Both the position numbers and the translations under genes were made by a program. Positions 28,267-62,618 of a DNA stretch of 64,000 bases are shown in pieces. Source of the stretch: a virus. The DNA lies in IMG/VR virus record IMGVR_UViG_3300010885_014887, positions 4,464-68,463 of that record; one strand, written 5' to 3'. A model generated the notes under the pieces. The model saw nothing but the letters and a program-made list of their open reading frames with translations, was not told the origin of the DNA and made no database searches. Position 1 is the stretch's first letter. The number at the start of each line of letters is the position of its first letter.

Positions 28267-28617
28267 ATGGATGACAGATTAAAATCTGCTCTCGATGTAG
28301 CTAATCGAATGGTTACATTTAATACTCAAAAAGAATTAATAAAGCAAGAATATAAAGAAAATTGTCTTTACTACGAAAATGGGCATCAATTTACAGTTAA
28401 TCGAGAACTTATTAATTTTTTAACATCACTTATCCAAATGGGATATACTGAAGATGTAGTAGTCGTTGATGATTTTGAAAATCCATATATGATATCTAAT
28501 ATTGAAGATTTTCGTTCTGCTATTTTTGATATTTACGCAGAAACAAGTAATCATTATTATCAAAAATATATCGAATTAAAGAAAAGTCGTTCGGTATTAA
28601 CGATGATTGGAATATAA
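28267..28617 (+). CDS. Hypothetical protein (possibly fibre-assembly chaperone-like)
   Basis: 116-aa ORF with a good RBS, abutting the next gene; function inferred from position only. Confidence 0.5.
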   Translation: MDDRLKSALDVANRMVTFNTQKELIKQEYKENCLYYENGHQFTVNRELINFLTSLIQMGYTEDVVVVDDFENPYMISNIEDFRSAIFDIYAETSNHYYQKYIELKKSRSVLTMIGI

Positions 28618-29499
28618 ATGTCATTGGGTGTATTAATGTTTGCCCATAATAATCGAGAAATTGATTACGGTACAATGGCATATGTATCGGCTAGATATGT
28701 GAACAAATATCTAAATGTACCAGTGAGTCTAGTAACAGATTCTAGTACAGTTAGATGGTTAGATAATAAAGATCCTAATATAATAAAATTCTTTGATAAG
28801 ATTATCTTAACTGATAACATACCCCAACCTAATAGGCAGGATAAAAGATTTTATGACGGGTCTTTAACTTTTAAAAGGATACCTTTTAAAAACGGATTTC
28901 GTTCTCGAGCGTATGAGTTAAGTCCTTATGATAAAACTCTAGTAATAGATACTGATGTGTTAATTAAGAATGATAGATTAAAATATATATGGAACTCTAA
29001 TACAGATTTTATGATTAATTCTAAACATATTGATATTGCACAAAATCGAGAGACTATGGAATTTAAAAGAGTTAGTGATCATACTATTGATTTTTATTGG
29101 GCTACAATTTTTTATTTTGAAAAAACAGAATGGACAAAAACTTTTTTCAATCTCTGTCAATTTATAGTTGAAAACTATGAATATTATAAATTCCTTTATC
29201 AGATATCATATTCAGTGATGCGCAATGACTATGTTTTTAGTATCGCTATTCATATAATGAATGGGTTTAATAATTTGACAAAGCCAGATACATTGCCTGC
29301 AGATTTATACTATACTGTTGACAGAGATGAATTGTATCAGATTAATGATGATGGAACATTAATTTTTTTGATACAGAAAGCAAATGTTCTTGGAGAATAT
29401 ACTCTGGCTAAAACAGGAAATCAAAATATACATATAATGAACAAGTACAGTTTTAATAGGAACACTTCAAGATTATTGGAGGTGCTAAATGACAACTAA
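28618..29499 (+). CDS. GT-A fold glycosyltransferase-like protein (GT8-like)
   Basis: SPYDKTLVIDTDVLI DxD motif; FYWATIFYF; RNDYVFSIA; HIMNK. Confidence 0.7.
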   Translation: MSLGVLMFAHNNREIDYGTMAYVSARYVNKYLNVPVSLVTDSSTVRWLDNKDPNIIKFFDKIILTDNIPQPNRQDKRFYDGSLTFKRIPFKNGFRSRAYELSPYDKTLVIDTDVLIKNDRLKYIWNSNTDFMINSKHIDIAQNRETMEFKRVSDHTIDFYWATIFYFEKTEWTKTFFNLCQFIVENYEYYKFLYQISYSVMRNDYVFSIAIHIMNGFNNLTKPDTLPADLYYTVDRDELYQINDDGTLIFLIQKANVLGEYTLAKTGNQNIHIMNKYSFNRNTSRLLEVLNDN

Positions 29500-30358
29500 G
29501 GGTTATGTAATATTAGCACAGAATAATAGTTCTAATGACTATGTACGTATGGCATATGTCTTGGCTCTTTCTATAAAGTTAACTCAAAAAGAAATTACAT
29601 CTGTTTGTCTTATTACAGATGTTCCTGACGCGGTTCCTCATCATTGTAACAAAGTTTTCGATCATGTTATACAAATACCTTGGTATGATGATGCACTAAA
29701 TTCAGAATGGAAGATAGAAAATCGATGGAAGATTTATTACATTACTCCATATGACGAAACTATATTACTTGATGCTGATATGTTGTTTTTAAGCAATGTT
29801 GATAACAGATGGAAATTTCTTAACAAGAATTATGATTTATTCATTACTTCAGATGTGTTGACTTATAGAAATGAATTAGTGATTGATAATTATTATAGAA
29901 AGGCATTTGTAGAAAATAAACTACCAAATACTTATAGTGCTTTTACATATTTTAAAAAATCAAAACTTGCTGATGAATTTTGGTTGCTAGTTGATATTAT
30001 ATATAAAAATTGGCAAGAATTTTATAATAGATTTCTACCAAACTATAAACCAACACATCTTAGTATGGATGTAGTATTTGCATTGGCAGTAAAGATATTA
30101 GATATAGAAGACCAAATTACAACACCATTTACTTATCCTACCTTTATACATATGAAAAGTCGTATACAGAATTGGGGAAATATTTCTAACGAATGGACAG
30201 AATCTATAACACCCTATATTAGCAACGAAGGTAAACTTAAAATAGGTAATTTCCAGCAGACTGGTATATTTCACTACACGGAGAAGAAGTTTTTAAATAG
30301 ACATGTAGAGAATGTATATCGAACGATATATGAGGAAAGATTAAATGGATCAAAATGA
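29489..30358 (+). CDS. GT-A fold glycosyltransferase-like protein (GT8/mannosyltransferase-like)
   Basis: YVRMAYVLALSIK...CLITD; TPYDETILLDADMLFL DxD motif; MDVVFALA; FIHMK. Confidence 0.75.
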   Translation: MTTKGYVILAQNNSSNDYVRMAYVLALSIKLTQKEITSVCLITDVPDAVPHHCNKVFDHVIQIPWYDDALNSEWKIENRWKIYYITPYDETILLDADMLFLSNVDNRWKFLNKNYDLFITSDVLTYRNELVIDNYYRKAFVENKLPNTYSAFTYFKKSKLADEFWLLVDIIYKNWQEFYNRFLPNYKPTHLSMDVVFALAVKILDIEDQITTPFTYPTFIHMKSRIQNWGNISNEWTESITPYISNEGKLKIGNFQQTGIFHYTEKKFLNRHVENVYRTIYEERLNGSK

Positions 30359-30974
30359 AAAAGATGCAATTGAAGAATTGCTTAGAGTCCTCTCTGAAAA
30401 ATCTAATCCAATGTACTATTTTTATTACGATCCCTCGACTGGTGAAATAATACATATGCGAAATTATCTAGAAGTAGATAAATTACCACATATTGAAATT
30501 CCTCAAAGCGAAGTTGAAAGTAATATAATGTTTTCTTTATCTGATTATCAGATATTAGAAAAAGATGAAAAAATACAATTAGTTAAAAAAGAAAAAATAA
30601 TTGATGTATCTAGAATATACAGTAATATAAAAGATATCAAACGACTATTCATTAATCCTATTAACGAAATATCTCACAGGATTTACCAGTATGATATATT
30701 AATTGAACAAGACACAATTAAAAAAGAATATAGAATAAGATTGTCTGATGTAATAAAAGATCATTCTGAAAAATATTTAGATTTAAATCAACAATTTATT
30801 TTTTATGTAACCAAAGATTATGATCCTAACATTGTTCTTAATACACTTTATACTTCATTCCAGGAATTGTTAAAATGTTCTAGTGTTACTATACCTTATA
30901 GTGATCATGATGAAATTTATTCTAATATATTTTCTTCTTATTCTTATGATTTTTTACATTTGGTGATTGTATGA
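30345..30974 (+). CDS. Hypothetical protein
   Basis: 209-aa ORF overlapping both neighbours in the operon. Confidence 0.55.
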   Translation: MDQNEKDAIEELLRVLSEKSNPMYYFYYDPSTGEIIHMRNYLEVDKLPHIEIPQSEVESNIMFSLSDYQILEKDEKIQLVKKEKIIDVSRIYSNIKDIKRLFINPINEISHRIYQYDILIEQDTIKKEYRIRLSDVIKDHSEKYLDLNQQFIFYVTKDYDPNIVLNTLYTSFQELLKCSSVTIPYSDHDEIYSNIFSSYSYDFLHLVIV

Positions 30975-31846
30975 ATATTATGTTACATGATATTGATACT
31001 ATATTCATTAGCTACGACGAACCTAATGCTGATAAAAATTATTCAGAATTAGTAAAGATATTACCATGGGCTAAACGTATTCATGGAGTTAAAGGCAGTG
31101 ATAGCGCACACAAGGCTGCTGCTAATCTAAGTGAAACTGACAGATTTATTACAGTTGATGCTGATAATATAATAGATCCTAAGTTTTTTTCGCAGATTAT
31201 TCTTTTAACAGATGAAAATAAAGATTATGTATTTTCGTGGTGCGGAAAGAATTCGATAAATGGTCTTATATACGGCAATGGCGGACTTAAATGTTGGACT
31301 AAAGATTTTGTCCTCAACATGAAGACACACGAAAATGCAGATCCCAATGACGCTGAAAGTGTAGTTGAATTTTGCTTCGACCCTAGATATTATCAAATGA
31401 ATGAATGTTATTCTACAAGTTATATCAATGGCAGTCCTTTCCAAGCATGGCGGGCTGGCTTCCGTGAAGGAGTTAAGATGTGTCTTGATAGGGGAGCAAA
31501 ATCTGAAAATATTAAAAGAGTTTGGTGGCAGAATTATCATAGATTATTAATATGGTGCAATGTTGGTGCTGATGTAAAAAATGGCGTATGGGCAATTTAT
31601 GGAGCTCGGTTAGGTTGTTATCTTACAGCGTGTACTGAATGGGATTACACGCAAGTAAGAGATTTTGAGTACTTAACAGATTATTGGAAGAAACATGTTG
31701 AACATGTTGATGTTGAAAATGAAGTTGAAGGTATTGGAAATAATTTACGTCAAAATTTAAATTTAGAAATAGCAGATTTAGATGTTAATGCTTCTCGATT
31801 TTTTAAATCTGTATACCAAAATACCCCCAGAGTGATAGAAAGATAA
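30971..31846 (+). CDS. Glycosyltransferase-like protein (GT-A, DxD)
   Basis: IFISYDEPNA...RIHGVKGSDSAHKAAA...FITVDADN...NGLIYGNGGLK...AWRAGFREGVK; paralogue of 37860-38537. Confidence 0.6.
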   Translation: MNIMLHDIDTIFISYDEPNADKNYSELVKILPWAKRIHGVKGSDSAHKAAANLSETDRFITVDADNIIDPKFFSQIILLTDENKDYVFSWCGKNSINGLIYGNGGLKCWTKDFVLNMKTHENADPNDAESVVEFCFDPRYYQMNECYSTSYINGSPFQAWRAGFREGVKMCLDRGAKSENIKRVWWQNYHRLLIWCNVGADVKNGVWAIYGARLGCYLTACTEWDYTQVRDFEYLTDYWKKHVEHVDVENEVEGIGNNLRQNLNLEIADLDVNASRFFKSVYQNTPRVIER

Positions 31847-31847: not shown

Positions 31848-33080
31848 ATGACAATGAGTAAGACTATTTGTGCTGTTCCGTGGATGCATCTAAATTTTGA
31901 ACCTAATGGTAAAGTAGTGCCATGTTGTTTAACAAGTTATCATAATTATTTTGCAGGTGATCTTAATAAAGAGTCTATTGAAGAAATTTGGAATAGTCAA
32001 AATATGAAAGATCTCCGCAAGGAGATGATAGCAGGAAATGAACCAAAGATATGCAGTACTTGCTTCGATAGAGAAAAAGTAACTGGAGAGAGCGGACGCA
32101 TCTATCAAAATAGAGAATTTAAAGATATAGTGGAAAAAATTCCAGATATCACTCTTGAAGATGGCACTTGTACTACTATGGATCTATTATATTGGGATTT
32201 TCGTTTTAGTAATCTATGTAATTTTAAATGTCGCAGTTGCGGTCCAAGATATAGTTCAGCATGGGTTTCTGATATTAAAAAATTAGGATGGAAGATGGAG
32301 GTGGAAAAGGTCACTAACATCGATTCTGTTGACGATGAGACTAATTTTGATTTTCTTAAAGATCAGATTAAGACAGTAAGAAAGATTTATTTTGCTGGAG
32401 GCGAACCTTTATTGATGCCAGAACATTGGCAGATATTAGAACTTTTAGTAGAGAACAAGAGATTTGATGTAAAATTAAATTATAATACTAATGCTTCTAA
32501 TTTAACATATGGTGGGAAGAATGTTTTAGATTATTGGAAACAATGGGAATATGGTAAGTTAGAAGTTTGGCCTAGTATTGACGAGATAGGAGATCGTGCC
32601 GAACTTATACGTTCAGGAACTGTCTGGTCTAAAGTAGAAGATAATCTAAAAGAAATTTCTAAGTTTGAAAATATCATTATACGTCCGGGAATTACAGTTG
32701 GTGCTTGGAATGTTAATAGATTACCTGAGATCATATATCATCTAGTTGATATTGGGGTCATTAGACCAACATTGAAGCATAAGAATTTCTTTTTAAATCT
32801 ATTATCTCATCCTACACATTATCACGTACATATATTATCTGATGATTATAGGAAATCTACGATTGAAAAATTAAAAAAATTTATGGTAGATTATGATAGA
32901 AATTATGGAACTAATATCGAGCCATTGTTTATTCACATTTTGCATGAACTTGAAAAACCATTTTCTCCTTCTGCTGCTAAAAAGTTTTTAGAAATTACAA
33001 AACAAATAGATACGATTCGTGATGAAGATATCTTTAGAGTTATTCCTGATTTAGAAGACATACGGAGAATAAATATATGA
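31848..33080 (+). CDS. Radical SAM protein with N-terminal twitch/SPASM-like domain
   Basis: CNFKCRSC motif, YFAGGEP, YNTN; N-terminal CAVPW...VPCC...IEEIWNS...CSTC. Confidence 0.9.
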   Translation: MTMSKTICAVPWMHLNFEPNGKVVPCCLTSYHNYFAGDLNKESIEEIWNSQNMKDLRKEMIAGNEPKICSTCFDREKVTGESGRIYQNREFKDIVEKIPDITLEDGTCTTMDLLYWDFRFSNLCNFKCRSCGPRYSSAWVSDIKKLGWKMEVEKVTNIDSVDDETNFDFLKDQIKTVRKIYFAGGEPLLMPEHWQILELLVENKRFDVKLNYNTNASNLTYGGKNVLDYWKQWEYGKLEVWPSIDEIGDRAELIRSGTVWSKVEDNLKEISKFENIIIRPGITVGAWNVNRLPEIIYHLVDIGVIRPTLKHKNFFLNLLSHPTHYHVHILSDDYRKSTIEKLKKFMVDYDRNYGTNIEPLFIHILHELEKPFSPSAAKKFLEITKQIDTIRDEDIFRVIPDLEDIRRINI

Positions 33081-34084
33081 TTAAGACGGATAAAGCATTA
33101 AAAGTAAATGCTATTAATTCTAAAAATAAAAATATGTTAGAATTAGAGTATGCGATACTGGATATTGATATATCTGATCGATGGATATCTCTTATTAATA
33201 AAAATAACGATCTTAAACGTACTTTAAGATATAATTATCGTAGAATTTTAACAGATTTAGAAGTTGAAGAAAAATTTCAAGATTTTAAAAATAACATTCT
33301 TTATATAAATGATCATTATGATAGGAAATTAACTGATATAATTTCTTTAGATTTCTTACATGGAAACCAAGATATATTAAATGATCTACATGAAGAATAT
33401 GAGATTTATGGAGATAGGCTAGCAGAATTAGTAAATGACAGATATTTTGATGATCCTATGAAGAGTGTATTTTTTAATCCTATCTGGCCCGGAATAAGAC
33501 AGAATAAAATTTTACACGAGGGATTTCTTTTATTAAACGAACAGATACATAATTTTGAAGCAATATTTCGTTCATATGGAAATAATAAAAGATTCTTATG
33601 CACTTGTTTGTTTGATTTTATGCCATCTGGCATACATGAAAATTTAAAACCAGAAGATTTTATGTTATTTTCTCCCGAGTCACAATGGGGATGGGCATAT
33701 TTAGGATATAACACTTTAGGAAAACATTGGGGTAGTGCGTGTCATGATAATGATATAGAAGCAGTAAAAAGAAAAGCCATTAGACCACAACAAAGATTTG
33801 CTGCTGAAACTTACTTGAATTTTAATTTAAATTCTGGAGGATATTCAACCCGTGTTAAATTATATAAATGGTGGTTAAAGAATAATTTCAGTGAAATACA
33901 TGATCCAAATATGAGATTGAATGAATTTTGTTTAGGATTTATTCCAATTGCAAAATTTACTGGTTATAAGATTAATAATCTCAATTGGACTACAATTGAT
34001 GAAAAAACCAATCAAGAAGAATGGAATGCTAGTGTTTGGAGTTTATTTGATACTATAGATTCTGTAGAGATAATTACTAGATGA
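33077..34084 (+). CDS. Hypothetical protein (His/Glu-rich helical motifs)
   Basis: 335-aa ORF with ATGA overlaps; LNDLHEEYE and LNEQIHNFE motifs. Confidence 0.55.
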   Translation: MIKTDKALKVNAINSKNKNMLELEYAILDIDISDRWISLINKNNDLKRTLRYNYRRILTDLEVEEKFQDFKNNILYINDHYDRKLTDIISLDFLHGNQDILNDLHEEYEIYGDRLAELVNDRYFDDPMKSVFFNPIWPGIRQNKILHEGFLLLNEQIHNFEAIFRSYGNNKRFLCTCLFDFMPSGIHENLKPEDFMLFSPESQWGWAYLGYNTLGKHWGSACHDNDIEAVKRKAIRPQQRFAAETYLNFNLNSGGYSTRVKLYKWWLKNNFSEIHDPNMRLNEFCLGFIPIAKFTGYKINNLNWTTIDEKTNQEEWNASVWSLFDTIDSVEIITR

Positions 34085-35028
34085 ACCAAGAAAAGATTAT
34101 AAGAGTAGAACAAAGTAAAGATAGTCCATTATACCTAACATGGATTATTAACAATATTTGTACTAATCAATGTAGTTATTGTCCAACATCACTTCATAAC
34201 GGAACAAATCATAATTACAGTTGGGATAATGCTAAAAAGTTTTTTAAATTGTTATTTGAAAGATATCCAAAAATTCATTGTTCAGTAGCAGGGGGGGAAC
34301 CAAGTGTTAGTCCATTTTTTCCAGAATTTGTAGAAATTTTTCGTAAAAATAATTCTACAATAGGGTTAACATCAAATGCTGCTAAAACTGTTAAGTATTG
34401 GGAAAGACTTGCCCCTGATTTACAATATATTTGTTTTAGTTGGCATTCGGAATTTATAGATAAAGATTTTGATGAAAAAGTAAAAGTTGCATCACAATAT
34501 ACTCCAGTAACTGTTAGGATAATGATGCATCCTGCTCACTGGGAAAAATGTGTAGAAAAGTTTAATAGTTATAAAAAACAAAATTCTGTTTTCTTTGAAG
34601 CTGTCCGTATACATTATTGGGGCGGCGGCTCTGATCTAAATGCGTCTATATATACTGATGATCAGTTACAATGGTTTAAAGAAAATGATAATGATAAATT
34701 TAAATTTATAATACCTAATTATAATAAACCTCCGTTAATTATGAAATCAATTTTTTATTTTAATAATGGAGAAGTTATTGAATACGGTAACACTGTGAAA
34801 TATATTAATAATGGTCTTACTAATTTTAATGGGTATAATTGTGCTATTGGTCTCAGATCATTATTTATTGATTATCAGGGACAAATTCAGAGAGGAAATT
34901 GTTCAGTTGGTGGATATATTGGAAATATTAACGATTCGGATAATATTCAATGGCCTACTGAACCTGTAAAATGCAATATAAATCTTTGTCATTGTACAAC
35001 AGATGTTGAGATTGAAAAATGGATTTAG
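34081..35028 (+). CDS. Radical SAM protein with C-terminal Cys cluster
   Basis: CTNQCSYC, VAGGEP, LTSN; C-terminal CAIG...GNC...CNINLCHC. Confidence 0.9.
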   Translation: MNQEKIIRVEQSKDSPLYLTWIINNICTNQCSYCPTSLHNGTNHNYSWDNAKKFFKLLFERYPKIHCSVAGGEPSVSPFFPEFVEIFRKNNSTIGLTSNAAKTVKYWERLAPDLQYICFSWHSEFIDKDFDEKVKVASQYTPVTVRIMMHPAHWEKCVEKFNSYKKQNSVFFEAVRIHYWGGGSDLNASIYTDDQLQWFKENDNDKFKFIIPNYNKPPLIMKSIFYFNNGEVIEYGNTVKYINNGLTNFNGYNCAIGLRSLFIDYQGQIQRGNCSVGGYIGNINDSDNIQWPTEPVKCNINLCHCTTDVEIEKWI

Positions 35029-35684
35029 ATTTTCCAAAAGAATTAATGGAATTTTATGAAGCAAATAAATCGTTTTCGTCTCCTGTACACGATAATGTTA
35101 TATCGTCACGAGACGATATAAATTGCGCATATTATCCTATAAAGTTTAATTTTGATACAGAATTACTTTTAGAAGAATGTAAGAGCGTAGATCATTTATA
35201 TTTTAATCATAGAAACCAAGATAAGAAAAAAGGATATGGTCATCGAGGTTGGCAGAGTCTTACATTGCATGGAATAGACAAACATAAGACAGAACATTTT
35301 ATTAGATATGGATTTAATACACTAGAAGAAGCAAATTATCATTGGACTGATGTATGTGAAAATGTTCCTAACCTTTATAAATTTTTGAGTAGTCTTCCTT
35401 ATAAAATATTTGATCGTGTTAGGATTATGCGATTAGCACCATATGGTTATATAATGCCTCATACTGATGGAAATGGTCGGATATTCAGTCCATTGAATAT
35501 CGCTATAAATAATCCCGATAATTGTCATTTTGTTTTTAAAGACAAAGGAATAGTACCTTTTGTTGCTGGCACTGGAATGATTATTGATGTAGCACAGGAA
35601 CATATTGTTATTAATCAGAGCGACGAACCAAGATATCATATTATAGTTCATGGACATCAATCAAGTGAGTTTACAAAATTATGA
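35019..35684 (+). CDS. Fe(II)/2-oxoglutarate oxygenase (Asp/Asn beta-hydroxylase-like)
   Basis: RVRIMRLAPYGYIMPHTD...LNIAINNP...EHIVINQSDEPRYHII (HxD...H triad plus Arg). Confidence 0.8.
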   Translation: MDLDFPKELMEFYEANKSFSSPVHDNVISSRDDINCAYYPIKFNFDTELLLEECKSVDHLYFNHRNQDKKKGYGHRGWQSLTLHGIDKHKTEHFIRYGFNTLEEANYHWTDVCENVPNLYKFLSSLPYKIFDRVRIMRLAPYGYIMPHTDGNGRIFSPLNIAINNPDNCHFVFKDKGIVPFVAGTGMIIDVAQEHIVINQSDEPRYHIIVHGHQSSEFTKL

Positions 35685-47645: not shown

Positions 47646-47649
47646 TTAG

Positions 47650-54623: not shown

Positions 54624-55191
54624 TTATATTGGTAATTGTAAAAATTTAATAGATTGGAATAAAGTTATAGAAAATTTAGAAAAATCTGATGAAGGTGAAA
54701 TTTTTAACAAAAAAAGAATAGAAAAATTAATAGAAGATATATCTAAAGATGTAAAAAATTCTTCCGAAATCGAACATAATAAACAAACTTCTGTGATATG
54801 GAAAGAAAATAATTATTTTTTAGACTCGATCAATTTTAAATTATATCGACCTGGAAAAAATTACGAACATACAATTTGTGATATAATTTCTTCTTTTTTA
54901 AAAGGAAAATATTTAACGTCGAGTATAAGTAGAGTAGATCCTGGATTCACAGTAGGAATACATAGGGATTCAACACCAAATTTATTGTTAGATAAAACTG
55001 TTAAGAGATATGTTATTTTTATAAATCCTCCAGAAGTGGGACAAATCTTTATATTAGGAGATGAATGTTTTCATAATGAAGAATTAGGAAATATTTATGA
55101 ATGGAGAAATATGGATTTATTGCACTCTGCTGCTAACACTAGTTTTAAATCACAATATCTTTTTCATATTGAGTGTAAATTTGATATATAA
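54616..55191 (+). CDS. Fe(II)/2OG oxygenase-like cupin
   Basis: ISRVDPGFTVGIHRD...RYVIFI...LLHSAAN. Confidence 0.7.
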   Translation: MNDYIGNCKNLIDWNKVIENLEKSDEGEIFNKKRIEKLIEDISKDVKNSSEIEHNKQTSVIWKENNYFLDSINFKLYRPGKNYEHTICDIISSFLKGKYLTSSISRVDPGFTVGIHRDSTPNLLLDKTVKRYVIFINPPEVGQIFILGDECFHNEELGNIYEWRNMDLLHSAANTSFKSQYLFHIECKFDI

Positions 55192-55194
55192 ATA
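55187..55194 (+). promoter_or_regulatory. Perfect T4-type late promoter motif TATAAATA
   Basis: TATAAATA at the gene junction, followed by a GAGG RBS and the ATG at 55218. Confidence 0.45.
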
Positions 55195-55217
55195 TTTTTT
55201 ATAATTGAGGATTTAAA

Positions 55218-55832
55218 ATGGCAACATATATTGGTAATTGTGCTGATCTAATTGATTGGAAAAAAATTACTGCTCCGTTGGATGATATAGTTTCGGATGA
55301 ACTATATAACGCCGATACGATGAGACTTTATGAAAATCATTTTCTCAATAGCACTAATCAATTAAGTGATTTTTTAAAAGATCAAGTTGCTACGAGTTCA
55401 AGTCAAATAGATTATAATTTATTTTTAATCAAAGAATGGTCTTCAAAGTATAGACTAGATACGATTGGTTTTTCTTTATATAGACCTGGAAAACATTATG
55501 ATGCTACAGTAGATAATATTTTAATAAAACTATTAGGAGGTAATATTACTACTACATCAATAAGTAGATTAGATCCTGGCTATAATGTACCTATCCATGA
55601 AGATTATACTAATATAAAAGAACCAAACTATGATCCTAATAAAAAAGTTTGTAGATATGTTATTTTTATTACTCCTCCAGAAACTGGACAATTCTTTACA
55701 TTAGGAGATGAATGTTTTCATAATATAAAAATTGGCGAAATCTATAAATGGGATCGTCCACAACAACTACATTGCGCTGCTAATGCTAGTTATAAGATAA
55801 ATTACCTTTATCATTTACAAGTAGAATATTAA
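55218..55832 (+). CDS. Fe(II)/2OG oxygenase-like cupin (tandem paralogue)
   Basis: ISRLDPGYNVPIHED...RYVIFI...QLHCAAN; shares LGDECFHN with the upstream gene. Confidence 0.7.
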   Translation: MATYIGNCADLIDWKKITAPLDDIVSDELYNADTMRLYENHFLNSTNQLSDFLKDQVATSSSQIDYNLFLIKEWSSKYRLDTIGFSLYRPGKHYDATVDNILIKLLGGNITTTSISRLDPGYNVPIHEDYTNIKEPNYDPNKKVCRYVIFITPPETGQFFTLGDECFHNIKIGEIYKWDRPQQLHCAANASYKINYLYHLQVEY

Positions 55833-55836
55833 AAAT

Positions 55837-56661
55837 ATGAATGATTTATCTGGATTAACGGCATTAGTTACTGGCGGCGGCCAAAATATAGGATTAGGAA
55901 TCTCGAAAGCTTTGGCAAAACGAGGTGCTAATATTATTGTAGCACAGCGTTCAAAAGAAATAGCAAACGATTGTGCTAAGATGATATCTAACAATTATGG
56001 AGTAAAATCTATTGCGATATCGTGTGATTTAACAAAACAAAACGATATAGACATGTTATTTAAAGAATCCCAATTATATTTTGAAAAAATAGACATTTTA
56101 GTTAACGGAGTTGGTGGAAGATTGGGAATTGATTCTATTAAAATAGAAGATCTAACACTAGATCAAATAAATGATAGCATGGATTTAAATTTTAAAACTG
56201 CTTTTTTATGTATGAAATCGGTTTTTCCGTTGATGAAAAAACAGAATTTTGGAAGAATTATTAATGTAACAAGCCATATCACTGAAGGTTTCCATGCCTA
56301 TAGTGCTCAATACAATATAAGTAAACAGGCATTAGTTAGTCTTACAAAAACAGCAGCAGTTGAATGGGGAAAATATAATATTACAGTTAATGCTATATGT
56401 CCTGCTGTAGGTAATGAGAAAATTAAAGTATTAGAAGGCACAGATTTACACAACCTAATACTTAAAATGATACCCACGGGACACTTATCTACTTCTGAAG
56501 ATGATGTTGGATCTATAGTTTCATGGTTAGCAAGTAAAGAGTCAAGATCTATTACAGGTACAATTCAATATGTAGATGGCGGCGTACATATAAATGGTTT
56601 AGGTTCAGATGGCGATAAAACTTTTCACGAAGCTATTAAAAAAACAACACGAGTGCCATAA
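55837..56661 (+). CDS. Short-chain dehydrogenase/reductase (classical SDR)
   Basis: VTGGGQNIG, DILVN, YNISK (YxxxK), ITVNAICP, ITG...VDGG. Confidence 0.9.
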   Translation: MNDLSGLTALVTGGGQNIGLGISKALAKRGANIIVAQRSKEIANDCAKMISNNYGVKSIAISCDLTKQNDIDMLFKESQLYFEKIDILVNGVGGRLGIDSIKIEDLTLDQINDSMDLNFKTAFLCMKSVFPLMKKQNFGRIINVTSHITEGFHAYSAQYNISKQALVSLTKTAAVEWGKYNITVNAICPAVGNEKIKVLEGTDLHNLILKMIPTGHLSTSEDDVGSIVSWLASKESRSITGTIQYVDGGVHINGLGSDGDKTFHEAIKKTTRVP

Positions 56662-56662
56662 A

Positions 56663-57214
56663 ATGGAAAATGTTTTATTTTTAGGACAATTTAATGAAAT
56701 AAATTGGAATGATATATTGGAGGATTTAGAAAATAAAAAAGGTATTAGTATAAATCCTGATTTTTCTAAATGGAATTTAAATACACCAGGATACTTGCAA
56801 ATTTATAAAATATGGAAAGATGCTAAATTTAATTCTAATGCTATTGAATGGATAAATTATTATCCCGAAGATCACTATCCGACATCTGTTGTAGACTCAA
56901 TAGCAAGATTTTTAAATGTAATTCCTTTACGATCTTGGATCAGTCAAATCAATCCTGGATATTTTGCTCCATGGCATTGGGATGTAGACGATAATGAAAC
57001 TGAATATTTAAAATTAGGAACGCCAATAAGGTATAGTTGTTTTATAGAATCTCCTTCGCATGGCCATATATTTATAATTGGAAATGATTATCTTTACAAT
57101 CAAGATCAAGGGAATTTATATCAATGGATAGATTATAAAGAATGGCATAGTGGGATAAATGCCGGAATGGTTCCAAAATATATGTTTCATTTAATTGGAA
57201 TCAAACGTAGTTAA
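56663..57214 (+). CDS. Fe(II)/2OG oxygenase-like cupin
   Basis: WISQINPGYFAPWHWD...RYSCFI...WHSGIN. The start was moved to the ATG at 56663, just after the SDR stop. Confidence 0.7.
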   Translation: MENVLFLGQFNEINWNDILEDLENKKGISINPDFSKWNLNTPGYLQIYKIWKDAKFNSNAIEWINYYPEDHYPTSVVDSIARFLNVIPLRSWISQINPGYFAPWHWDVDDNETEYLKLGTPIRYSCFIESPSHGHIFIIGNDYLYNQDQGNLYQWIDYKEWHSGINAGMVPKYMFHLIGIKRS

Positions 57215-57718
57215 TTGTAATGTGTATCTATTGTCGTATCCAATATTAACGCACCCATGATAACACAGTGGATCTACCCATTGATATAAATCTCCTGCTT
57301 TATAATTTGTAATAATATTATCTTCCCAAACAAAAATATGTCCTGGTTTAAAATCTTCTAGAAACATAGTATATCTTTTTGGATTTTTAATGTCTATTAA
57401 ATGCGGATCGAAATGCATCGGTTGCATTTGTCCCGGTAATAATTTAATTATCCACCAAAGAATCTGTCTATTGTCATTTGGCAATTTAGGCAATACTATA
57501 TTAAATTCTTTCATATCATTGGATTTTTCATTAAACTGCTGGAAGTAATGATTTGATTGACTATAACCTTCTCTAGCCCGTTCTAACGCTTCTTCCAATA
57601 ATGGATTATCTTTCCATCTATACGGTTGCCATACAGGTGTTGTGTCTCCATTGTGAGATTTTATATGACTCATTAAATTTTCAGTTATTAATTCTTTATA
57701 ATTGCCAATATATATCAT
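57191..57718 (-). CDS. Fe(II)/2OG oxygenase-like cupin
   Basis: IIKLLPGQMQPMHFD...RYTMFLEDFKPGHIF...YHGCVNIGYDNRYTLQ. Confidence 0.7.
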   Translation of the reverse strand: MIYIGNYKELITENLMSHIKSHNGDTTPVWQPYRWKDNPLLEEALERAREGYSQSNHYFQQFNEKSNDMKEFNIVLPKLPNDNRQILWWIIKLLPGQMQPMHFDPHLIDIKNPKRYTMFLEDFKPGHIFVWEDNIITNYKAGDLYQWVDPLCYHGCVNIGYDNRYTLQLTTFDSN

Positions 57719-57724
57719 CTTTTT

Positions 57725-58216
57725 TTACTCGTAAGTAGCACATTGAAAAGTTAGTCTTGGGCTATAACCAATATTAGACGCTCCGTGTATTATATTTGGA
57801 TCATCATAAACCCACATGTCTCCTAGTTTATAGTCGGTAATAAATGTTTTATCATATATGAATATATGACCAGGTTGATAATCTTGTAAAGGCATCCAAT
57901 ATCTAATATAATTAGTTTTATCTGGTAAAAACACATCTTTATGCATCGGCATAAAATTTCCTGGAGTCATTTTTATGAACCACCATTGCTCGTATCCTTT
58001 TGTTTGAAAAGGAAGTTTTACTTTAAATGGAAAACTACGAGAGTCATATGAATGCCAATATGTTTTTGTTAAATCGTAACCACATTCTGATGCTATACGA
58101 AATTCTTCTGTATCAGGATTTTCGCTTTTTCCTGGTCTCTCAACGCCATCGTTTGACATTATATAATCTACCCATCTTGGATCTATCCAATTTTTAAAAT
58201 TTCCTATAAATTTCAT
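57725..58216 (-). CDS. Fe(II)/2OG oxygenase-like cupin
   Basis: FIKMTPGNFMPMHKD...RYWMPLQDYQPGHIF...IHGASNIGYSPRLTFQ. Confidence 0.7.
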   Translation of the reverse strand: MKFIGNFKNWIDPRWVDYIMSNDGVERPGKSENPDTEEFRIASECGYDLTKTYWHSYDSRSFPFKVKLPFQTKGYEQWWFIKMTPGNFMPMHKDVFLPDKTNYIRYWMPLQDYQPGHIFIYDKTFITDYKLGDMWVYDDPNIIHGASNIGYSPRLTFQCATYE

Positions 58217-59022
58217 TAGTAACTCTCTAAATGATCTATATTTAATTTTTTTCTAAATGAATCTGAAAATTTACCATCAATTCTTAATCCGTAACTTTGC
58301 TCTATTATTTTTTCTCCACCATGCCAATCTTGATCATTCCACCATGCTGCTCTGGTATTTAGATAAATTTTATTTTTTGTATTAGGGTCCCATAAGTAAA
58401 ATGCTTTTTTTGTATTTGGTCTAATATGTATAAATTCATTTCTATGTAATGTATACGTTTGGTTATTTCCTTTATTTCCATCAAAATCTCTATGCTCAAA
58501 TGGTATACCATCAGCTTCGCAATGAAAAAATATTACTCTTCCTATACTGTCAAAGATATTATCTTCTATCATTTTCTCTACCCACTTAACAACATTTGGA
58601 AAATAAGCGGCTTCTTCCGTTAGTTTTCTTGGAGATGATCTTTCATCCCAACTACCTTGTTCCCATAAGAAGTAATAGATGTAAGGATCATATGCTCCCA
58701 TAGCCATTTTTATATATCTAGTAAATTTATTCCTAATTCTAAAATCATGGAAGTCTTTATATAAATCAATACCTCCTTTTTTTACAGGATTATCATCAGG
58801 GAGGGCTAAGAATTCTTCTATTGCTTTATAAATTGGTTTCCAGTGTATATTATAACTCATGTCTTTAAAATCAAAACCTGGTTTCATCCATGTACCTTCT
58901 TTAGCAAACTCTCTAGATTCGCTAAATCCTCTATATATTTCTGGTTGTAATTTTTCAAAGGTGTCCATGTCTATATATGGTTCTATATCAAAATAAGGTT
59001 GATTATTAATCCCCTTAATCAT
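58216..59022 (-). CDS. Putative Fe(II)/2OG oxygenase-like protein
   Basis: IGRVIFF...PFEHRD...DWHGG...YGLRIDG (HxD...H...R). Confidence 0.55.
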   Translation of the reverse strand: MIKGINNQPYFDIEPYIDMDTFEKLQPEIYRGFSESREFAKEGTWMKPGFDFKDMSYNIHWKPIYKAIEEFLALPDDNPVKKGGIDLYKDFHDFRIRNKFTRYIKMAMGAYDPYIYYFLWEQGSWDERSSPRKLTEEAAYFPNVVKWVEKMIEDNIFDSIGRVIFFHCEADGIPFEHRDFDGNKGNNQTYTLHRNEFIHIRPNTKKAFYLWDPNTKNKIYLNTRAAWWNDQDWHGGEKIIEQSYGLRIDGKFSDSFRKKLNIDHLESY

Positions 59023-60068
59023 GGGTATCTCCTATATTTTTCAGGAATTAAATCTGGCAAAGGTAATCCTTTATTTAATAATGCATCTCTTAAAATAACT
59101 TGATGTACTAGAGGAGAAATTGGATATCCTGGCAATATATCTGCCCACGCTTCTGTTTGTATTTCTTCTAAATCTATAGTTCTAGCATCAGGCCATTGTA
59201 TAAGTTTTACAAAAACGCCATTAATTAAAAATGGATAATGTGCCCTAATACCACTTTTTTCTAATGGAATAATAGACCAGTTGTTTTTATATGCTATTTC
59301 CTTTGTCTTTTGCACTAATTGGCTTAGATAAATTTGTGGTTGTTTTGGATTTCTACCTATATCAGCACTACATCTTATCCTAAAATTTGCGGATGTTTTT
59401 TTATAAAGTTCTTGTATTTCTTTTAGGCAATATTCCATTTGTGACATATCGTCTAATGTATAACTAATATCTTTTATTGTTAATCCTAGTTTAATACAAT
59501 TTTCAATACCTTCTACTTGCTTTTTTCTTATTTTTAACCCGTGATAATCTGGATGATTTAATCCAATAGTCCAAATTAGTTGTTCTATCTCGGTAAATTT
59601 TTTAGCATAATCTAAATCAGATAATCTAACCCCATTTGAAAGTATTATTGTTCGTCTAGGTTGTATAGGTAATTTGAAAACAGAATTAATTAATATATCC
59701 AAATCTTTTCTCATAGTTGGTTCTGCACCAGCTAATGCTAATCCGTATCCGTCATTTTCCCAAGACATTATTTGATCTAATATTGCATCGATTGATCTAT
59801 CTTTAGACATATTATCTGGTACTTGATAACAGTGTTGACATTTAAGATTGCAATGATTTGTTATATCTATAAAATAACCTTTTGGTAAATCTATTTTATA
59901 TTTGTAATTTAAATAAAACTCGGCATCGGGCTCTATTAAATTTTCGCTATAACCATGGACCGGGCAATTTTTTCCAATCCATATTTCATCGTTTTTTTCA
60001 AATTTTGTTCCAGAAATATGTCGATAACAATATTCACATAATGTCATAGTATCATTTAATTTTAACAT
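59019..60068 (-). CDS. Radical SAM protein with N-terminal CxxC...CPxHG metal motif
   Basis: TLCEYC...KNCPVHG; DITNHCNLKCQHCY; LAGAEPT; LSNG. Confidence 0.85.
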   Translation of the reverse strand: MLKLNDTMTLCEYCYRHISGTKFEKNDEIWIGKNCPVHGYSENLIEPDAEFYLNYKYKIDLPKGYFIDITNHCNLKCQHCYQVPDNMSKDRSIDAILDQIMSWENDGYGLALAGAEPTMRKDLDILINSVFKLPIQPRRTIILSNGVRLSDLDYAKKFTEIEQLIWTIGLNHPDYHGLKIRKKQVEGIENCIKLGLTIKDISYTLDDMSQMEYCLKEIQELYKKTSANFRIRCSADIGRNPKQPQIYLSQLVQKTKEIAYKNNWSIIPLEKSGIRAHYPFLINGVFVKLIQWPDARTIDLEEIQTEAWADILPGYPISPLVHQVILRDALLNKGLPLPDLIPEKYRRYP

Positions 60069-60096
60069 TATTGGTATTTATGATAAATTAGTTTAT

Positions 60097-60810
60097 ATGA
60101 AAACATTTAGAAATTTAAAATACAAATATTATTATAATACTGTTCCTGGAGAATCTTCTTGGAGGAATAATTTAATTTATACAAGTCTAGTGTCAGAAGA
60201 TTTTAAAGTATTTGTACAATGGTATTATAACGATGGAGTATATCATGCTGGACAAAATCAAGTAGTAGATCCTGCACTTATGGATGAAAAATGGCAAAGA
60301 GAAATAAAATTTTTATCTTTAATGGAAAAACATTATCCAGATATGATTCCTAAAATATTACATATTAATCAAAAAGAAAAGAAAATATATTTAGAAATAG
60401 ATGGTGTAGATTTCTGGCAACGTAGTTTAGACAGTAATTCTAGTTTTGATAAAATCTTGCCTAATTGGCAAGAGCAAATGCTTGATATAATTAAAGCACA
60501 TAGAACTCTTGGTTTATACAAATATTCTATGCATCCTAGTAGTTATTTTATAATAGATGGTAAACTTAAAAGTATTAATTACTTTTTTACATACAATGAA
60601 TTAGAATCTCAGATATCAATTAAAGATGTTGAAAGCCATATACATAGTAACAGACAGATAGAAATAAAAAAACATCTAGATAAATTGGGAATTAAATGGG
60701 ACATACCTCAATCTTTTGAAACACTAAATCAATTATGCTGGGAAAGTTTTAGAAAAAATTATCCTGAAGAATTTATTGAGAAAGTTAAAAATATAGCATG
60801 TACAAAATAA
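60097..60810 (+). CDS. Protein-kinase-like fold protein (paralogue of 53931-54623)
   Basis: NNLIYT; WQREIKFL...IPKILHIN...IYLEI...GLYKYSMHPSSYFI...LKSINYF. Confidence 0.5.
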   Translation: MKTFRNLKYKYYYNTVPGESSWRNNLIYTSLVSEDFKVFVQWYYNDGVYHAGQNQVVDPALMDEKWQREIKFLSLMEKHYPDMIPKILHINQKEKKIYLEIDGVDFWQRSLDSNSSFDKILPNWQEQMLDIIKAHRTLGLYKYSMHPSSYFIIDGKLKSINYFFTYNELESQISIKDVESHIHSNRQIEIKKHLDKLGIKWDIPQSFETLNQLCWESFRKNYPEEFIEKVKNIACTK

Positions 60811-61364
60811 TACCTTGGTCTCCTTCTTTAGATTTAAAAGAATTTTATGCTAATGCAGCATCTAGAGGATTTGAAAATAACGCCAATCAAAAGATGTTAG
60901 TAGACTCGTTTAATACTGAACGTGAAAAGCAAGTTTGGATTTTGTATTGCGGTGATACTGCTGTCGGCAGTGTTGCTGCCCATAGTTTTGATAATGTAAT
61001 GGGTAAAAATAGTTATAGGATTGCTGCTCGTACTTGTGTGTTTACTGATTTATTATCTGGAAATTACAGAAACGCCTTACGAGGTATTAGTTGTATCACT
61101 AAAAATCAAAACCCAACAGCACAATTTTTAATCCCTACTTGTATTAATTGGGCACCTTCGGGGGCTAACTTATACATTACTACTAATGAAAGTGAAGTTG
61201 GAACACAACGACTAGTTCATCGAATTTTTGGGCCATCTATGGAAAAAACAGGACAGATGAAACGCATTAAAGATGTTGAATATAGGGGTGCATTACAGAC
61301 AGTTTGGCAGTTATTTCCGGATAAATTTTTTGAAATTCTAAATAAATATCCTCAATGGGAATAA
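60798..61364 (+). CDS. Possible GNAT-fold acyltransferase
   Basis: VWILYCGDTAVGSVAAH...YRIAARTC...LYITTN strand pattern; weak. Confidence 0.35.
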   Translation: MYKIIPWSPSLDLKEFYANAASRGFENNANQKMLVDSFNTEREKQVWILYCGDTAVGSVAAHSFDNVMGKNSYRIAARTCVFTDLLSGNYRNALRGISCITKNQNPTAQFLIPTCINWAPSGANLYITTNESEVGTQRLVHRIFGPSMEKTGQMKRIKDVEYRGALQTVWQLFPDKFFEILNKYPQWE

Positions 61365-61385
61365 ATAGTATTAGAGGAGAAAACT

Positions 61386-62315
61386 ATGAATTACTCTAAA
61401 TTTCTAGAAACTATTTCTGATGTGATATATCTAGCTCCATCACGTTGCGGTAGAACTTTTTATGAATGTCGCATTAAGGAAAATGAATCAAATATATCTG
61501 TTAGGTTTATTTTTACACAAAAATATATTGATTCCGATCATAGACTAAGAAAAGATAGACTTTTTCCTGATTGCTTAAAGATTCATGAACAGTGGCATCA
61601 AACGGGCATGGCTATTGGAACATTAGAGTATTTTTTAATAGAAAACAATATTCCTTATACAATCAATGATGAAAACGTAGAAGAATATGTTGAAGTTTTC
61701 ATTGATTCAAATAACATTGAAAATGCAAGAATAAGTATAGACAAATATACCCATCATAATCATACTAATCGCGGATTTGATATATCTACTCCGGTTGATG
61801 ATATTACTTTTGATAAAATAAACAAGATGATTGATGATTTTATGATTGAACATCCTGATAATTATAAAATAGTAATTACAGATAATGAAACAATTGAAAA
61901 TTTATACACCTTATCTACTACTACAATGTTAGCAACTACCCAAAATTATGATTTGAAACAACAGCAAATGATGGCTCCGTTGATAGTATCAATTCCTTCT
62001 AAAACAGTAAACAAAAGAGATTTTTACAATACAGGAAGATTATATTGCAAGATCGGGTTAACTGCACACGATGCGGGATATCATACAGGGTATAATAATT
62101 GTTTTAATTATGAAGATCCGAGATTTAAGCGAGTTGAAGATGTACTTCATATGAAATTTAATGAAATAGATCACGAAAATTATGTGCTAAGATGCTTTAT
62201 TTCTATAGGTAAAAGATACGACTACTCAAAAGCATTTAATTGGCATCCGTTTGAAACTAGAATCATAACTAGCAGACCAAAATTATCAAAGGAATTTATA
62301 AAAGTTGAAGCATAA
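61386..62315 (+). CDS. Nitroreductase-like (FMN) protein
   Basis: RGFDISTPVDD, APLIV, TGRLYCKIGLTAHDAGYHTG...C, FISIGK; GAGGAG RBS and ATAAATA at 61361-61367. Confidence 0.55.
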   Translation: MNYSKFLETISDVIYLAPSRCGRTFYECRIKENESNISVRFIFTQKYIDSDHRLRKDRLFPDCLKIHEQWHQTGMAIGTLEYFLIENNIPYTINDENVEEYVEVFIDSNNIENARISIDKYTHHNHTNRGFDISTPVDDITFDKINKMIDDFMIEHPDNYKIVITDNETIENLYTLSTTTMLATTQNYDLKQQQMMAPLIVSIPSKTVNKRDFYNTGRLYCKIGLTAHDAGYHTGYNNCFNYEDPRFKRVEDVLHMKFNEIDHENYVLRCFISIGKRYDYSKAFNWHPFETRIITSRPKLSKEFIKVEA

Positions 62316-62318
62316 AAT

Positions 62319-62618
62319 ATGTTAAAAGTAAGATATATTTCTATAATTTTGGACTCAAAGGCCCCAAGATTTTTTATTCATGATTCTGATTTAATAAAGT
62401 TAATTCATAGAGAATACATTGATACCGGAAAAATGATTTCTATGTTTGAAACTATATCTGATAATGATCGTCGCAAAGAAGAAATTTTTATTTTCAAATC
62501 AGAAAAAGATTATGAAGATTTTAAAAATAATGAAATAATAGCCTATATCTACAAAGTTAGGCTATTATATAATATTCATTATCATATTGATCATGCAGTA
62601 AAAATAGAAGAAATTTAA
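62319..62618 (+). CDS. Hypothetical protein
   Basis: 99-aa ORF, last gene of the + strand run. Confidence 0.5.
   Translation: MLKVRYISIILDSKAPRFFIHDSDLIKLIHREYIDTGKMISMFETISDNDRRKEEIFIFKSEKDYEDFKNNEIIAYIYKVRLLYNIHYHIDHAVKIEEI

Follow-up and report, generated by a model that had tools for sequence, protein, structure and literature searches.

A fibre-linked island rich in radical SAM enzymes in a phage genome fragment, with a candidate role in building and editing a virion glycan

The stretch of viral DNA that is analysed here, which we refer to as "the window", comprises 64,000 nucleotides (positions 4,464 to 68,463) of the IMG/VR virus record IMGVR_UViG_3300010885_014887, a linear record of 68,463 bp that is 19% complete by CheckV and is covered almost entirely by the window. 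Its source is an uncultured jumbo phage, apparently of freshwater. Our subject is the block of genes at positions 28267-62618 of the window, which we refer to as "the island": 40 open reading frames (ORFs), 32 on the forward and 8 on the reverse strand, that are located between tail-fibre genes and include 13 radical S-adenosylmethionine (rSAM) enzymes. ORFs are named by the first of their coordinates (Table 1). An earlier description, made from the letters of the DNA without database searches (the sequence-only reading), had presented this region as a ~34-kb block of about 40 packed ORFs, and the packing is indeed tight: 24 of the 39 junctions overlap, at 11 the genes are 0-25 nt apart, and no gap exceeds 96 nt.

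The count of 13 rSAM genes is borne out by two signatures that fall in the same 13 ORFs, the CxxxCxxC motif and the family PF04055. Of the 51 ORFs examined, exactly 13 carry the motif, all within the block, and 38 lack it. When the 68.5-kb record was searched with PF04055 in all six frames, 13 matches were likewise returned, of which 11 exceed the cut-off alone, one does so only together with its frame neighbours, and one remains below it (28.0 bits, at 42155-43237 on the reverse strand); when the ORFs themselves were searched by hmmscan, 12 of the 13 exceeded the curated cut-off. The other enzyme classes of the sequence-only reading fared unevenly. Seven of its eight HxD...H cupins stand, with a triad that is invariant in all seven and in nine relatives (16-sequence alignment), while the eighth, ORF 58216, is a weak candidate; of its four DxD GT-A glycosyltransferases, the GT8-like pair is supported by a profile match and the GT2-like pair matches only below cut-off. 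The two kinase-fold proteins and the short-chain dehydrogenase/reductase (SDR) are upheld by profile matches, and the QueC-like, pyridoxal-phosphate (PLP) enzyme and methyltransferase calls correspond to weak matches (ORFs 44779, 43929 and 40491). Its two SGNH calls found no family match, with only a GDS-type motif visible in ORF 37034, its nitroreductase-like call found none either, and the best lead for its GNAT-like call is FeeM, for ORF 60798, at E 0.058.

Several classes of genes were searched for in the 40 island ORFs with a negative outcome: no 19-residue stretch reaches the hydrophobicity threshold for a transmembrane (TM) segment in any of them; Pfam detects no exporter, flippase, polymerase or membrane initiating transferase family; and no RRE/PqqD-like domain or precursor-like gene was found at E <= 0.01 among ORFs of at least 80 amino acids (aa). 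For ten ORFs that are otherwise unmatched, Pfam at E values up to 10 added nothing firm.

Table 1. Genes of the island and of its flanks, in window coordinates. E values refer to the family or profile named; percentages are identities.
Feature	Position	Strand	Basis and remarks
Giant 4578-aa ORF	7399-21135	+	between wedge and fibre genes
Three fibre-like paralogues	21821-24184, 24181-25623, 25666-27225	+	PHROG tail fibre/collar matches
Hypervariable 314-aa protein directly before the island	27263-28207	+	no PHROG match
116-aa protein, first gene of the conserved anchor	28267-28617	+	no Pfam match; 20-sequence alignment
GT8-like (glycogenin-like) GT-A transferase	28618-29499	+	family profile against PDB: glycogenin E 4e-5
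Second GT8-like transferase	29489-30358	+	27% identical to paralogue 28618
209-aa protein at conserved position	30345-30974	+	no Pfam match; 28-45% identical homologues in closer loci
GT2-like GT-A domain protein, anchor gene	30971-31846	+	PF00535 E 0.0033, below cut-off
N-terminal-twitch rSAM, copy 1	31848-33080	+	NF033640 E 6e-109, 365 bits; SPASM domain at residues 8-72, rSAM at 120-232
335-aa protein	33077-34084	+	no Pfam/NCBIfam match; family in 6 sources; 29% identical homologue in a Bdellovibrionales locus
rSAM	34081-35028	+	PF04055 E 2e-9; CTNQCSYC motif
Predicted Fe/2OG cupin, Asp/Asn beta-hydroxylase family	35019-35684	+	PF05118 E 8e-12; family in 31 sources
448-aa protein, family mostly viral	35681-37027	+	no Pfam or PDB match
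267-aa protein	37034-37837	+	no family match; GDS motif is N-terminal
Second GT2-like domain protein	37860-38537	+	35% identical to paralogue 30971
Core rSAM	38518-39513	+	PF04055 E 6e-12
rSAM	39501-40478	+	PF04055 E 1e-12; 34% identical to 48484
Rossmann-type, methyltransferase-like (weak)	40491-41099	+	Methyltransf_23/25 E 0.15-0.17
Core rSAM	41092-42177	+	PF04055 E 2e-7
rSAM with C-terminal SPASM	42155-43237	-	PF04055 E 6.5e-7; SPASM E 1.8e-4; 33% identical to paralogue 41092
Predicted Fe/2OG cupin (PF05118)	43206-43889	-	E 5e-7; triad invariant
PLP-fold-like (weak)	43929-44786	+	family profile: aminotransferase E 0.018; K188 invariant
PP-loop ATPase-like	44779-45504	+	NAD_synthase E 9e-4; NAD+ synthase/TilS N-domain E 2e-4 to 1e-3
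N-terminal-twitch rSAM, copy 2	45476-46756	+	NF033640 E 2e-91, 307 bits
rSAM	46749-47645	+	PF04055 E 3e-11
279-aa protein	47650-48489	+	no family match
rSAM	48484-49485	-	PF04055 E 5e-10
N-terminal-twitch rSAM, copy 3, core type	49482-50867	-	NF033640 E 1e-112, 377 bits
Tandem rSAM pair with putative B12-binding domain	50964-52448, 52453-53934	+	PF04055 E 2e-11, 2e-12; 61% identical
Kinase-fold protein	53931-54623	+	family profile against PDB protein kinases E 4e-5
Two cupins	54616-55191, 55218-55832	+	43% identical to each other; triad invariant
Short-chain dehydrogenase/reductase	55837-56661	+	adh_short_C2 E 1e-48
Cupin	56609-57214	+	33% identical to paralogue 54616; triad present
Two cupins	57191-57718, 57725-58216	-	37% identical; triad; 57725 PF05118 E 0.004, below cut-off
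268-aa possible eighth cupin	58216-59022	-	hhalign against cupin alignment E 0.0076, probability 5%; HRD and later His in register with cupins; no Pfam or PDB match
rSAM with N-terminal zinc ribbon	59019-60068	-	PF04055 E 5e-13; PF23545 E 4e-11
Kinase-fold protein	60097-60810	+	27% identical to paralogue 53931; same family profile
Three ORFs	60798-61364, 61386-62315, 62319-62618	+	no family match at E <= 0.01; FeeM for 60798 is a lead only
Fibre-like protein with collagen-like Gly-X-X repeats, right boundary of the island	62626-63741	-	repeat at residues 51-80

The same arrangement of genes recurs in other phages. A rSAM profile search of five large relatives found 14 matches in the complete genome G001 (381,886 bp), all of them at 241.6-271.2 kb, and seven in the 85.9-kb fragment G005, with no match in the other three, whose genomes are only 27-70% complete. 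The gene order in both G001 and G005 is that of the window, i.e. the giant ORF, 21144, the three fibre paralogues, 27263, 28267, 28618, 29489 and 30971, and the island of G001 is closed ~41 kb later by a homologue of the collagen-like ORF 62626 (279243-280358). No match to 20 kb of the island was returned by Megablast from 50,697 phage records, and a search of IMG/VR with the protein of ORF 30971, which serves as our anchor, returned 70 loci, two of which lack the full anchor ORF and are excluded from the counts that follow. Upstream of the anchor, all 49 loci whose flank is long enough carry the 29489 type, all 41 that reach far enough carry the 28267 and 28618 types, and 29 of the 33 with at least 6 kb of flank carry a fibre paralogue; downstream of it, the 37860 type occurs in 32 of 37 loci and at least one CxxxCxxC ORF in 55 of 56, with one to six such ORFs per locus in the 32 loci whose downstream flank measures 9 kb or more. 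A common order in the more distant loci is 30971, 37860, 38518 (rSAM), 41092 (rSAM), 40491, 35019 (cupin) and 35681, continued by 45476 (N-terminal twitch), 46749, 39501/48484 and 49482 (N-terminal twitch). Both in the window and in the IMG/VR loci, the transferase genes adjoin structural genes, as would be expected of a virion glycosylation system.

Because this synteny recurs in the relatives, we reject an assembly chimera as the origin of the block. The linkage to fibre genes that the sequence-only reading had described is found again in the related genomes examined, where the genes are not scattered, and the block is thus confirmed as a real, recurrent, pathway-like module that is linked to fibre genes.

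What follows the anchor varies greatly. The cargo ORFs downstream of the anchor in 71 sources amount to 588 proteins in 112 families, 61 of which come from a single source; CxxxCxxC is present in 218 of the 588 proteins, with three rSAM families making up most of these. Loci with an 87-90% identical anchor carry mostly unrelated genes after it, and other loci share the 37860-38518-40491 series at 72-82% identity but differ in what is inserted between the GT2-like pair. The diversity of the islands arises mainly from the exchange of cassettes between conserved anchors. The sequence-only reading had instead invoked an expansion of paralogues, and this does not hold for most of the genes: in a midpoint-rooted FastTree phylogeny of 108 N-terminal-twitch sequences, the three window copies fall in three deep clades, each with bacterial members, and each copy is 57-69% identical to its orthologues elsewhere as against 26-31% to its paralogues in the window. 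A recent burst of paralogues in situ is ruled out by this tree, the N-terminal-twitch copies appear to be ancient subfamilies, and only the tandem B12-rSAM pair and some of the cupins look like local duplications.

The genes that remain constant include four transferase-like genes. The profile of the GT8-like family (ORFs 28618 and 29489) matches glycogenin-1/2 over ~104 residues, and the DxD residues D111 and D113 are invariant in its alignment; single-sequence Pfam searches are blank, which makes this a distant match. In the GT2-like pair, ORF 30971 scores 17.8 bits against PF00535 (cut-off 23.3) and ORF 37860 has no PF00535 match; the 30971 type falls with viral "glycosyltransferase 2-like" clusters of the Atlas, its family comprises at least 8000 database clusters, a few members of which carry PF00535 or PF13641, and in many database relatives (e.g. 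P0004) the 30971 and 37860 types are fused as one protein of ~535 aa. A profile search of the PDB with this pair's family gave no significant match. The 37860 family is present in 61 of the 71 sources, and the methyltransferase-like 40491 family, which has no significant PDB match, in 50. The relatives also hold genes for nucleotide-sugar enzymes: in a Pfam tally of 100 of their ORFs (39 from the island of G001 and 61 unmatched cargo ORFs, some of which may lie past the end of the island), Radical_SAM occurs 13 times, UDPG_MGDP_dh six times, Epimerase three times and GDP_Man_Dehyd twice. One locus (L098) carries a UDP-glucose 6-dehydrogenase between two GT2-like genes (E 1e-21 against solved enzymes), which we take, by length and position only, to belong to an unmatched family of ~410 aa that is found in eight sources.

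Our preferred reading, to which we would assign a probability of roughly 45%, is that of a hypervariable island whose soluble enzymes would assemble and then edit a glycan, probably on fibre or baseplate proteins. A glycan is favoured because the four-transferase core is constant (with the GT8 profile match and the fused GT2-like genes), because the relatives hold the UDP-glucose 6-dehydrogenase between GT2-like genes along with other nucleotide-sugar enzymes, and because the cellular counterparts that are described below are rich in GT2 genes. The core, i.e. two GT8-like and two GT2-like proteins, at least one N-terminal-twitch rSAM, two further rSAM types and the methyltransferase-like protein, would use nucleotide sugars to build an oligo- or polysaccharide in the cytoplasm, where the pathway is placed by the lack of any TM segment, exporter, flippase or polymerase. 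The swappable cargo, i.e. the additional rSAM enzymes, the cupins predicted to be iron- and 2-oxoglutarate-dependent (Fe/2OG), the B12-rSAM putative C-methylases and the kinase-fold, SDR, PLP-like and PP-loop proteins, would edit the sugars by oxidation, epimerisation, deoxygenation, C-methylation, hydroxylation, phosphorylation, and amination or amidation. The acceptor would be a virion protein (fibre or baseplate) of the same cytoplasm, giving a surface glycan that is specific to each phage lineage; since the island lies in the late baseplate/fibre module and lacks any membrane or export component, a virion protein is the likeliest acceptor. The island continues from the fibre genes on the same strand, with a further fibre-like gene beyond it. 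We infer the product, the chemistry of each editing enzyme and the acceptor from the gene content. Of the undescribed, fibre-linked tailoring pathway that the sequence-only reading had proposed, the module and its linkage therefore stand and its glycan version is backed, with a virion protein as the candidate acceptor.

Several observations weigh against this reading, and some of them lead directly to an alternative. The window contains no gene for nucleotide-sugar synthesis; the GT2-like status of ORFs 30971 and 37860 depends on sub-threshold matches, and an hhalign comparison of their family is not significant either with a true GT2 enzyme (E 0.19) or with the GT8-like family (E 0.11); a recognisable fibre paralogue is absent upstream of the anchor in 4 of 33 loci; and the islands of Bdellovibrionota that are described below contain or abut proteins with seven or eight TM segments, so that the cellular product may be exported, which fits an envelope target as well. 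Peptide maturation is the setting in which twitch/SPASM rSAM enzymes are best known, and the nearest solved relative of the N-terminal-twitch family is the peptide maturase SkfB (E 2e-6). All three N-terminal-twitch copies exceed the NF033640 cut-off of 170 bits, four N-terminal cysteines are invariant in the family, and the SPASM-type match is N-terminal in all three copies, above cut-off in 31848 and 45476 and below it in 49482 (16.9 versus 21.5 bits). These enzymes and the hydroxylases might act directly on residues of the fibres or of the giant protein, by cross-linking, epimerisation, methylation or hydroxylation, with no glycan involved, a view to which the many weak NCBIfam matches to peptide maturases, the naming of PF05118 for the hydroxylation of protein Asp/Asn residues and the fusion of a cupin to the 35681 domain also lend themselves. 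All of the peptide-maturase matches are, however, far under their cut-offs, Pfam finds neither an RRE domain nor a precursor-like gene, and such a direct maturation would leave the four-transferase core and the nucleotide-sugar genes of the relatives unexplained; we regard it as improbable.

PF05118 (cut-off 22.6 bits) is matched above cut-off by two of the cupin ORFs (45.7 and 30.1 bits) and below it by one (17.4 bits), an assignment that rests on the profile and the facial triad, from which Fe/2OG activity is predicted. In the IMG/VR loci, ORF 35681 invariably follows cupin 35019 directly, and the protein appears to be the functional partner of this cupin. Its domain is fused to the PF05118 cupin in both orders (L199:10540-12966 on the reverse strand and L212:10746-12701 on the forward strand), and further relatives are fused to an rSAM domain, in proteins of ~810 aa, or to PF05118 (P0165, P0184, P0187, P0190, P0191 and P0212); a GT2-like structural row for 35681 in the Atlas is below that tool's bar and is a lead only, and hhalign comparisons of the 35681 family with the GT2-like and GT8-like families gave no significant match. 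The B12 domain PF02310 is matched in ORFs 50964 and 52453 at 26.2 and 16.8 bits (cut-off 32.1, reached by neither), and the pair has weak NCBIfam matches, far below cut-offs, to PhpK-type and lipid B12-rSAM families; a search for related loci with a B12-rSAM protein found no relative.

Such a set of enzymes could also be imagined to make a free small molecule, e.g. an aminoglycoside-like, nucleoside-like or other sugar-derived metabolite. Twitch rSAM, B12-rSAM, kinase-fold, PLP-like, SDR and Fe/2OG enzymes resemble the sets that tailor pseudo-oligosaccharide antibiotics, all of the island's enzymes are soluble, and the cargo of one relative in the 100-ORF tally includes a DHQ-synthase-family gene and a class III aminotransferase. 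The window, though, lacks genes for scaffold formation, export or self-resistance, the core of four transferases remains constant and linked to fibre genes, and the cargo varies between near-identical phages, which is a better fit to surface variation; a metabolite is therefore an unlikely product. The tally further contains alternative oxidase (five), ThyX (two), a RuBisCO large-chain family match, and an Orn/Arg decarboxylase with a saccharopine dehydrogenase.

Hypermodification of DNA, in which the transferases would glycosylate modified phage bases and the other enzymes would tailor the adduct against restriction, is suggested by the PP-loop protein of the window, by two QueC-family matches in the tally and by the suitability of cargo turnover for an arms race; phage glycosyltransferases that modify DNA are known (PMC12619734, citing Pyle et al. 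2024). The island is nevertheless located among structural and not replication genes, its cellular homologues adjoin GT2 and membrane proteins, and only one strong ThyA-type match (338 bits) was obtained in G001, at a great distance from the island. Tet_JBP gave no match in G001, which is a weak blank since the control also matched nowhere. The gene content of G001 weakens this explanation, which we consider very unlikely.

Homologous islands exist in bacteria. When 185,579 species genomes were searched by pattern with the core N-terminal-twitch type (6-sequence alignment), 259 relatives were found, of which the best 80 were examined: 69 of these loci bear Bdellovibrio-type names, all of which we assign, as an assumption, to one phylum, the Bdellovibrionota. 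Among the 69 loci, 38518-like rSAM genes occur in 44, 41092-like genes in 41, methyltransferase-like genes in 27 and GT2-like genes in 21, and the 38518-like, 41092-like and GT2-like genes occur together in 19; homologues of 38518 and of the 41092/42155 family are each present in 48 of the 80 bacterial loci, and those of 43929 in ten. Three such genomes have 9, 13 and 13 NF033640 matches, and none of 14 control genomes reaches the cut-off. The islands share with the window the core N-terminal-twitch rSAM (ORF 49482 is 43-50% identical to the main Bdellovibrionota group and 69% to the copy of G005), the 38518 type (mostly 46-55%, with two weaker homologues at 30-31%), the 41092 type (~34%), and methyltransferase-like, GT2-like (40-46% for the 37860 type), 43929-like and cupin proteins. 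They differ from it in carrying multi-TM proteins and ordinary GT2 enzymes, and in lacking the GT8-like pair and the small 28267 protein, the sole exception (1/69) looking like a misbinned phage contig. Of the 135 unmatched neighbours in the bacterial islands, 16 belong to GT2, more than to any other family, and two GT2 genes are confirmed in an isolate, Bdellovibrio sp. HCB2-146. A region of ~37 kb in this isolate contains 11 CxxxCxxC ORFs that are homologous to window families, together with two 43929-like genes, one 40491-like gene, one cupin and two GT2 genes. Since housekeeping genes flank the island in one Bdellovibrionota locus, the Bdellovibrionota islands are chromosomal; two of them, of ~30-40 kb with 11 CxxxCxxC ORFs each, are located at G006:C1:1858000-1895000 and G008:C2:2131000-2158000 (L240-L244). 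Contigs with phage-type gene orders were also seen in metagenome-assembled genomes of Crocinitomicaceae, Thermoplasmata, Neisseriaceae and Bdellovibrionales (L160, L161, L212 and L219), the last of which carries 27263-28267-28618-29489-30971; these four are probably misbinned fragments of jumbo phages. A literature search on rSAM/glycosyltransferase islands of Bdellovibrionota found no description.

The membrane proteins of these islands bear on a further alternative, namely that the phage remodels the host envelope by altering the lipopolysaccharide (LPS), capsule or another envelope glycan through a host lipid carrier or export system, with superinfection block or a changed surface as the outcome. 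The region of HCB2-146 ends at an 8-TM protein and a protein of 1965 aa, 7-8-TM proteins are located inside the island of a second Bdellovibrionota genome, and the PMT family is found in one of nine homologues of the 8-TM protein, which is a lead only. The kinase-fold proteins of the island can be counted on the same side, as LPS core kinases share this fold, and so can the GT8 and PF05118 families, among whose members are LPS core transferases and the lipid A hydroxylase LpxO. Against an envelope target stand the soluble gene set, with its lack of TM segments, flippase, polymerase and initiating transferase, and the location of the island within the fibre module on the same strand; to our knowledge, moreover, lytic jumbo phages do not spend 30-40 kb on serotype conversion. 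On balance we regard this as rather unlikely.

The left 28 kb of the window codes for a baseplate hub, wedge proteins, the giant ORF and the three fibre-like paralogues; the placing of fibre genes at both ends of the block by the sequence-only reading is thus correct, with these paralogues on the left and the collagen-like protein on the right. The wedge protein has at least 593 relatives in IMG/VR and shares 33-38% identity with its counterparts in Atu_ph07, SCTP-2, RaK2, 121Q and further jumbo myoviruses. Counterparts of the giant ORF measure 4522 aa in G001 (36% identity) and 4472 aa in G005 (38%), and a shorter one, ORF361 of the Ralstonia phage RsoM2USA, is reported among the virion protein bands in the genome paper (PMC8504454). 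The fibre-like paralogues share their N-terminal ~250-350 aa at 28-34% identity, and the Gly/Ser/Thr-rich 62626 protein has a Gly-X-X run of 30 residues. The 27263 protein, two copies of which are present in some loci, is only 26-33% identical even between loci whose neighbouring genes are 70-90% identical, and is a candidate distal fibre or receptor-binding protein; the pattern resembles that of a receptor-binding tip diversifying alongside the enzyme cargo. The G+C content, ~30% for the window, is 0.33-0.37 in most structural genes, ~0.30-0.33 in the giant ORF and 0.25-0.32 in the island (28000-62000), and the lower value of the island is consistent with exchangeable, horizontally moving cargo. 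Scans of the window found no tRNA genes, and promoter-like sites (142 versus 136.5 expected) and terminator-like sites (5 versus 4.7) are at chance level. Most of 44001-63807 is covered, with 0-1 differences, by contigs from two DNA runs that bear the label "freshwater metagenome"; both runs may be the source sample, hence they are not independent support.

A wider hypothesis, which we put forward as speculative and rather doubtful, extends the preferred reading to both groups: phages and, independently, Bdellovibrionota would place a glycan on protein by means of soluble transferases and would edit it after assembly with an exchangeable battery of rSAM and cupin enzymes, the attachment site being perhaps hydroxylated beforehand by the cupin-35681 pair, and the outcome would be a serotype-like diversity of fibres or predator surfaces that affects the recognition of host or prey, or the escape from defence. 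If the glycan reading is true, a widespread group of freshwater and marine jumbo phages devotes about one tenth of its genome to lineage-specific, radically edited sugars on the particle, which would add a layer of host recognition and of immune or defence evasion that is invisible to comparisons of fibre sequences. The three dominant rSAM families of the cargo have no characterised member nearby, and the 35681 domain joins a cupin or an rSAM domain; the islands of cultivable Bdellovibrio and the eight-gene version in a cultured phage bring the chemistry within reach of experiments.

That eight-gene minimal form is found in RsoM2USA (MG752970) as ORF347-354, directly after the fibre genes. As in the window, the module follows the wedge, a large structural ORF and the fibre genes; its order is a small 28267-like protein (28% identity), two GT8-like transferases (36% and 41%), an ORF of ~184 aa, a GT2-like protein (43%), an N-terminal-twitch rSAM (25%), a second GT2-like protein (44%) and a methyltransferase-like protein (29%). 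It differs from the window in its size, with eight genes and one rSAM as against 40 genes and 13, and all of its genes are annotated "hypothetical"; only two rSAM-like matches occur in the whole RsoM2USA genome, and a term search of its genome paper returned no mention of ORF347-354 (PMC8504454).

High numbers of rSAM genes have precedents in phages, contrary to the statement of the sequence-only reading that phages usually carry only a few: the Campylobacter phages CP220 and CPt10 are described as encoding 11 and 12 rSAM proteins, with five located in a central module that is interchangeable (PMC2853527). CP220 contains a 28% identical relative of the window family 41092; tblastn searches of phages with 30971, 38518, 48484 and 49482 did not find CP220/CPt10, and those with 38518 and 48484 gave no match at all. 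Unlike the phage of the window, CP220 and CPt10 are T4-like, with genomes of ~177 kb, and the portions of their description available to us report no link to fibre genes (PMC2853527).

Glycosylation of virions is also established elsewhere. The transferases of mycobacteriophages place glycans on capsid and tail-tube subunits (Freeman et al. 2023, summarised in PMC12619734). Those glycans were found on named virion subunits, whereas the acceptor in the window is proposed from genes. The mycobacteriophage system reportedly consists of few transferases, with no rSAM or cupin set. In the "Moraphage" group of aquatic jumbo phages, four core orthogroups are putative glycosyltransferases (PMC12619734); this is a different lineage with predicted Bacteroidota hosts, and the term "radical SAM" is absent from the article text that was searched (PMC12619734). 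For the coupling of hydroxylation to glycosylation, the nearest analogies are Skp1 of protists, where a soluble Fe/2OG hydroxylase makes the attachment site for soluble GT-A transferases that include a glycogenin homologue (bioRxiv 10.1101/764241), and the collagen of Mimivirus, whose hydroxylysine is glycosylated by viral collagen transferases (PMC9546862). The window resembles these systems in its pairing of a cupin with the 35681 domain (elsewhere the two are fused) in the neighbourhood of GT8-like and GT2-like genes, and differs from them in its PF05118 hydroxylase family and in the presence of rSAM enzymes, so the comparison is an analogy only. Literature searches returned no account of an island that is linked to fibre genes, combines a core of four transferases with an exchangeable cargo dominated by rSAM genes, and has a counterpart in Bdellovibrionota. 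High rSAM counts in phages and the glycosylation of virions are already known, and what appears to be new here is the rSAM-dominated, fibre-linked island with its proposed glycan.

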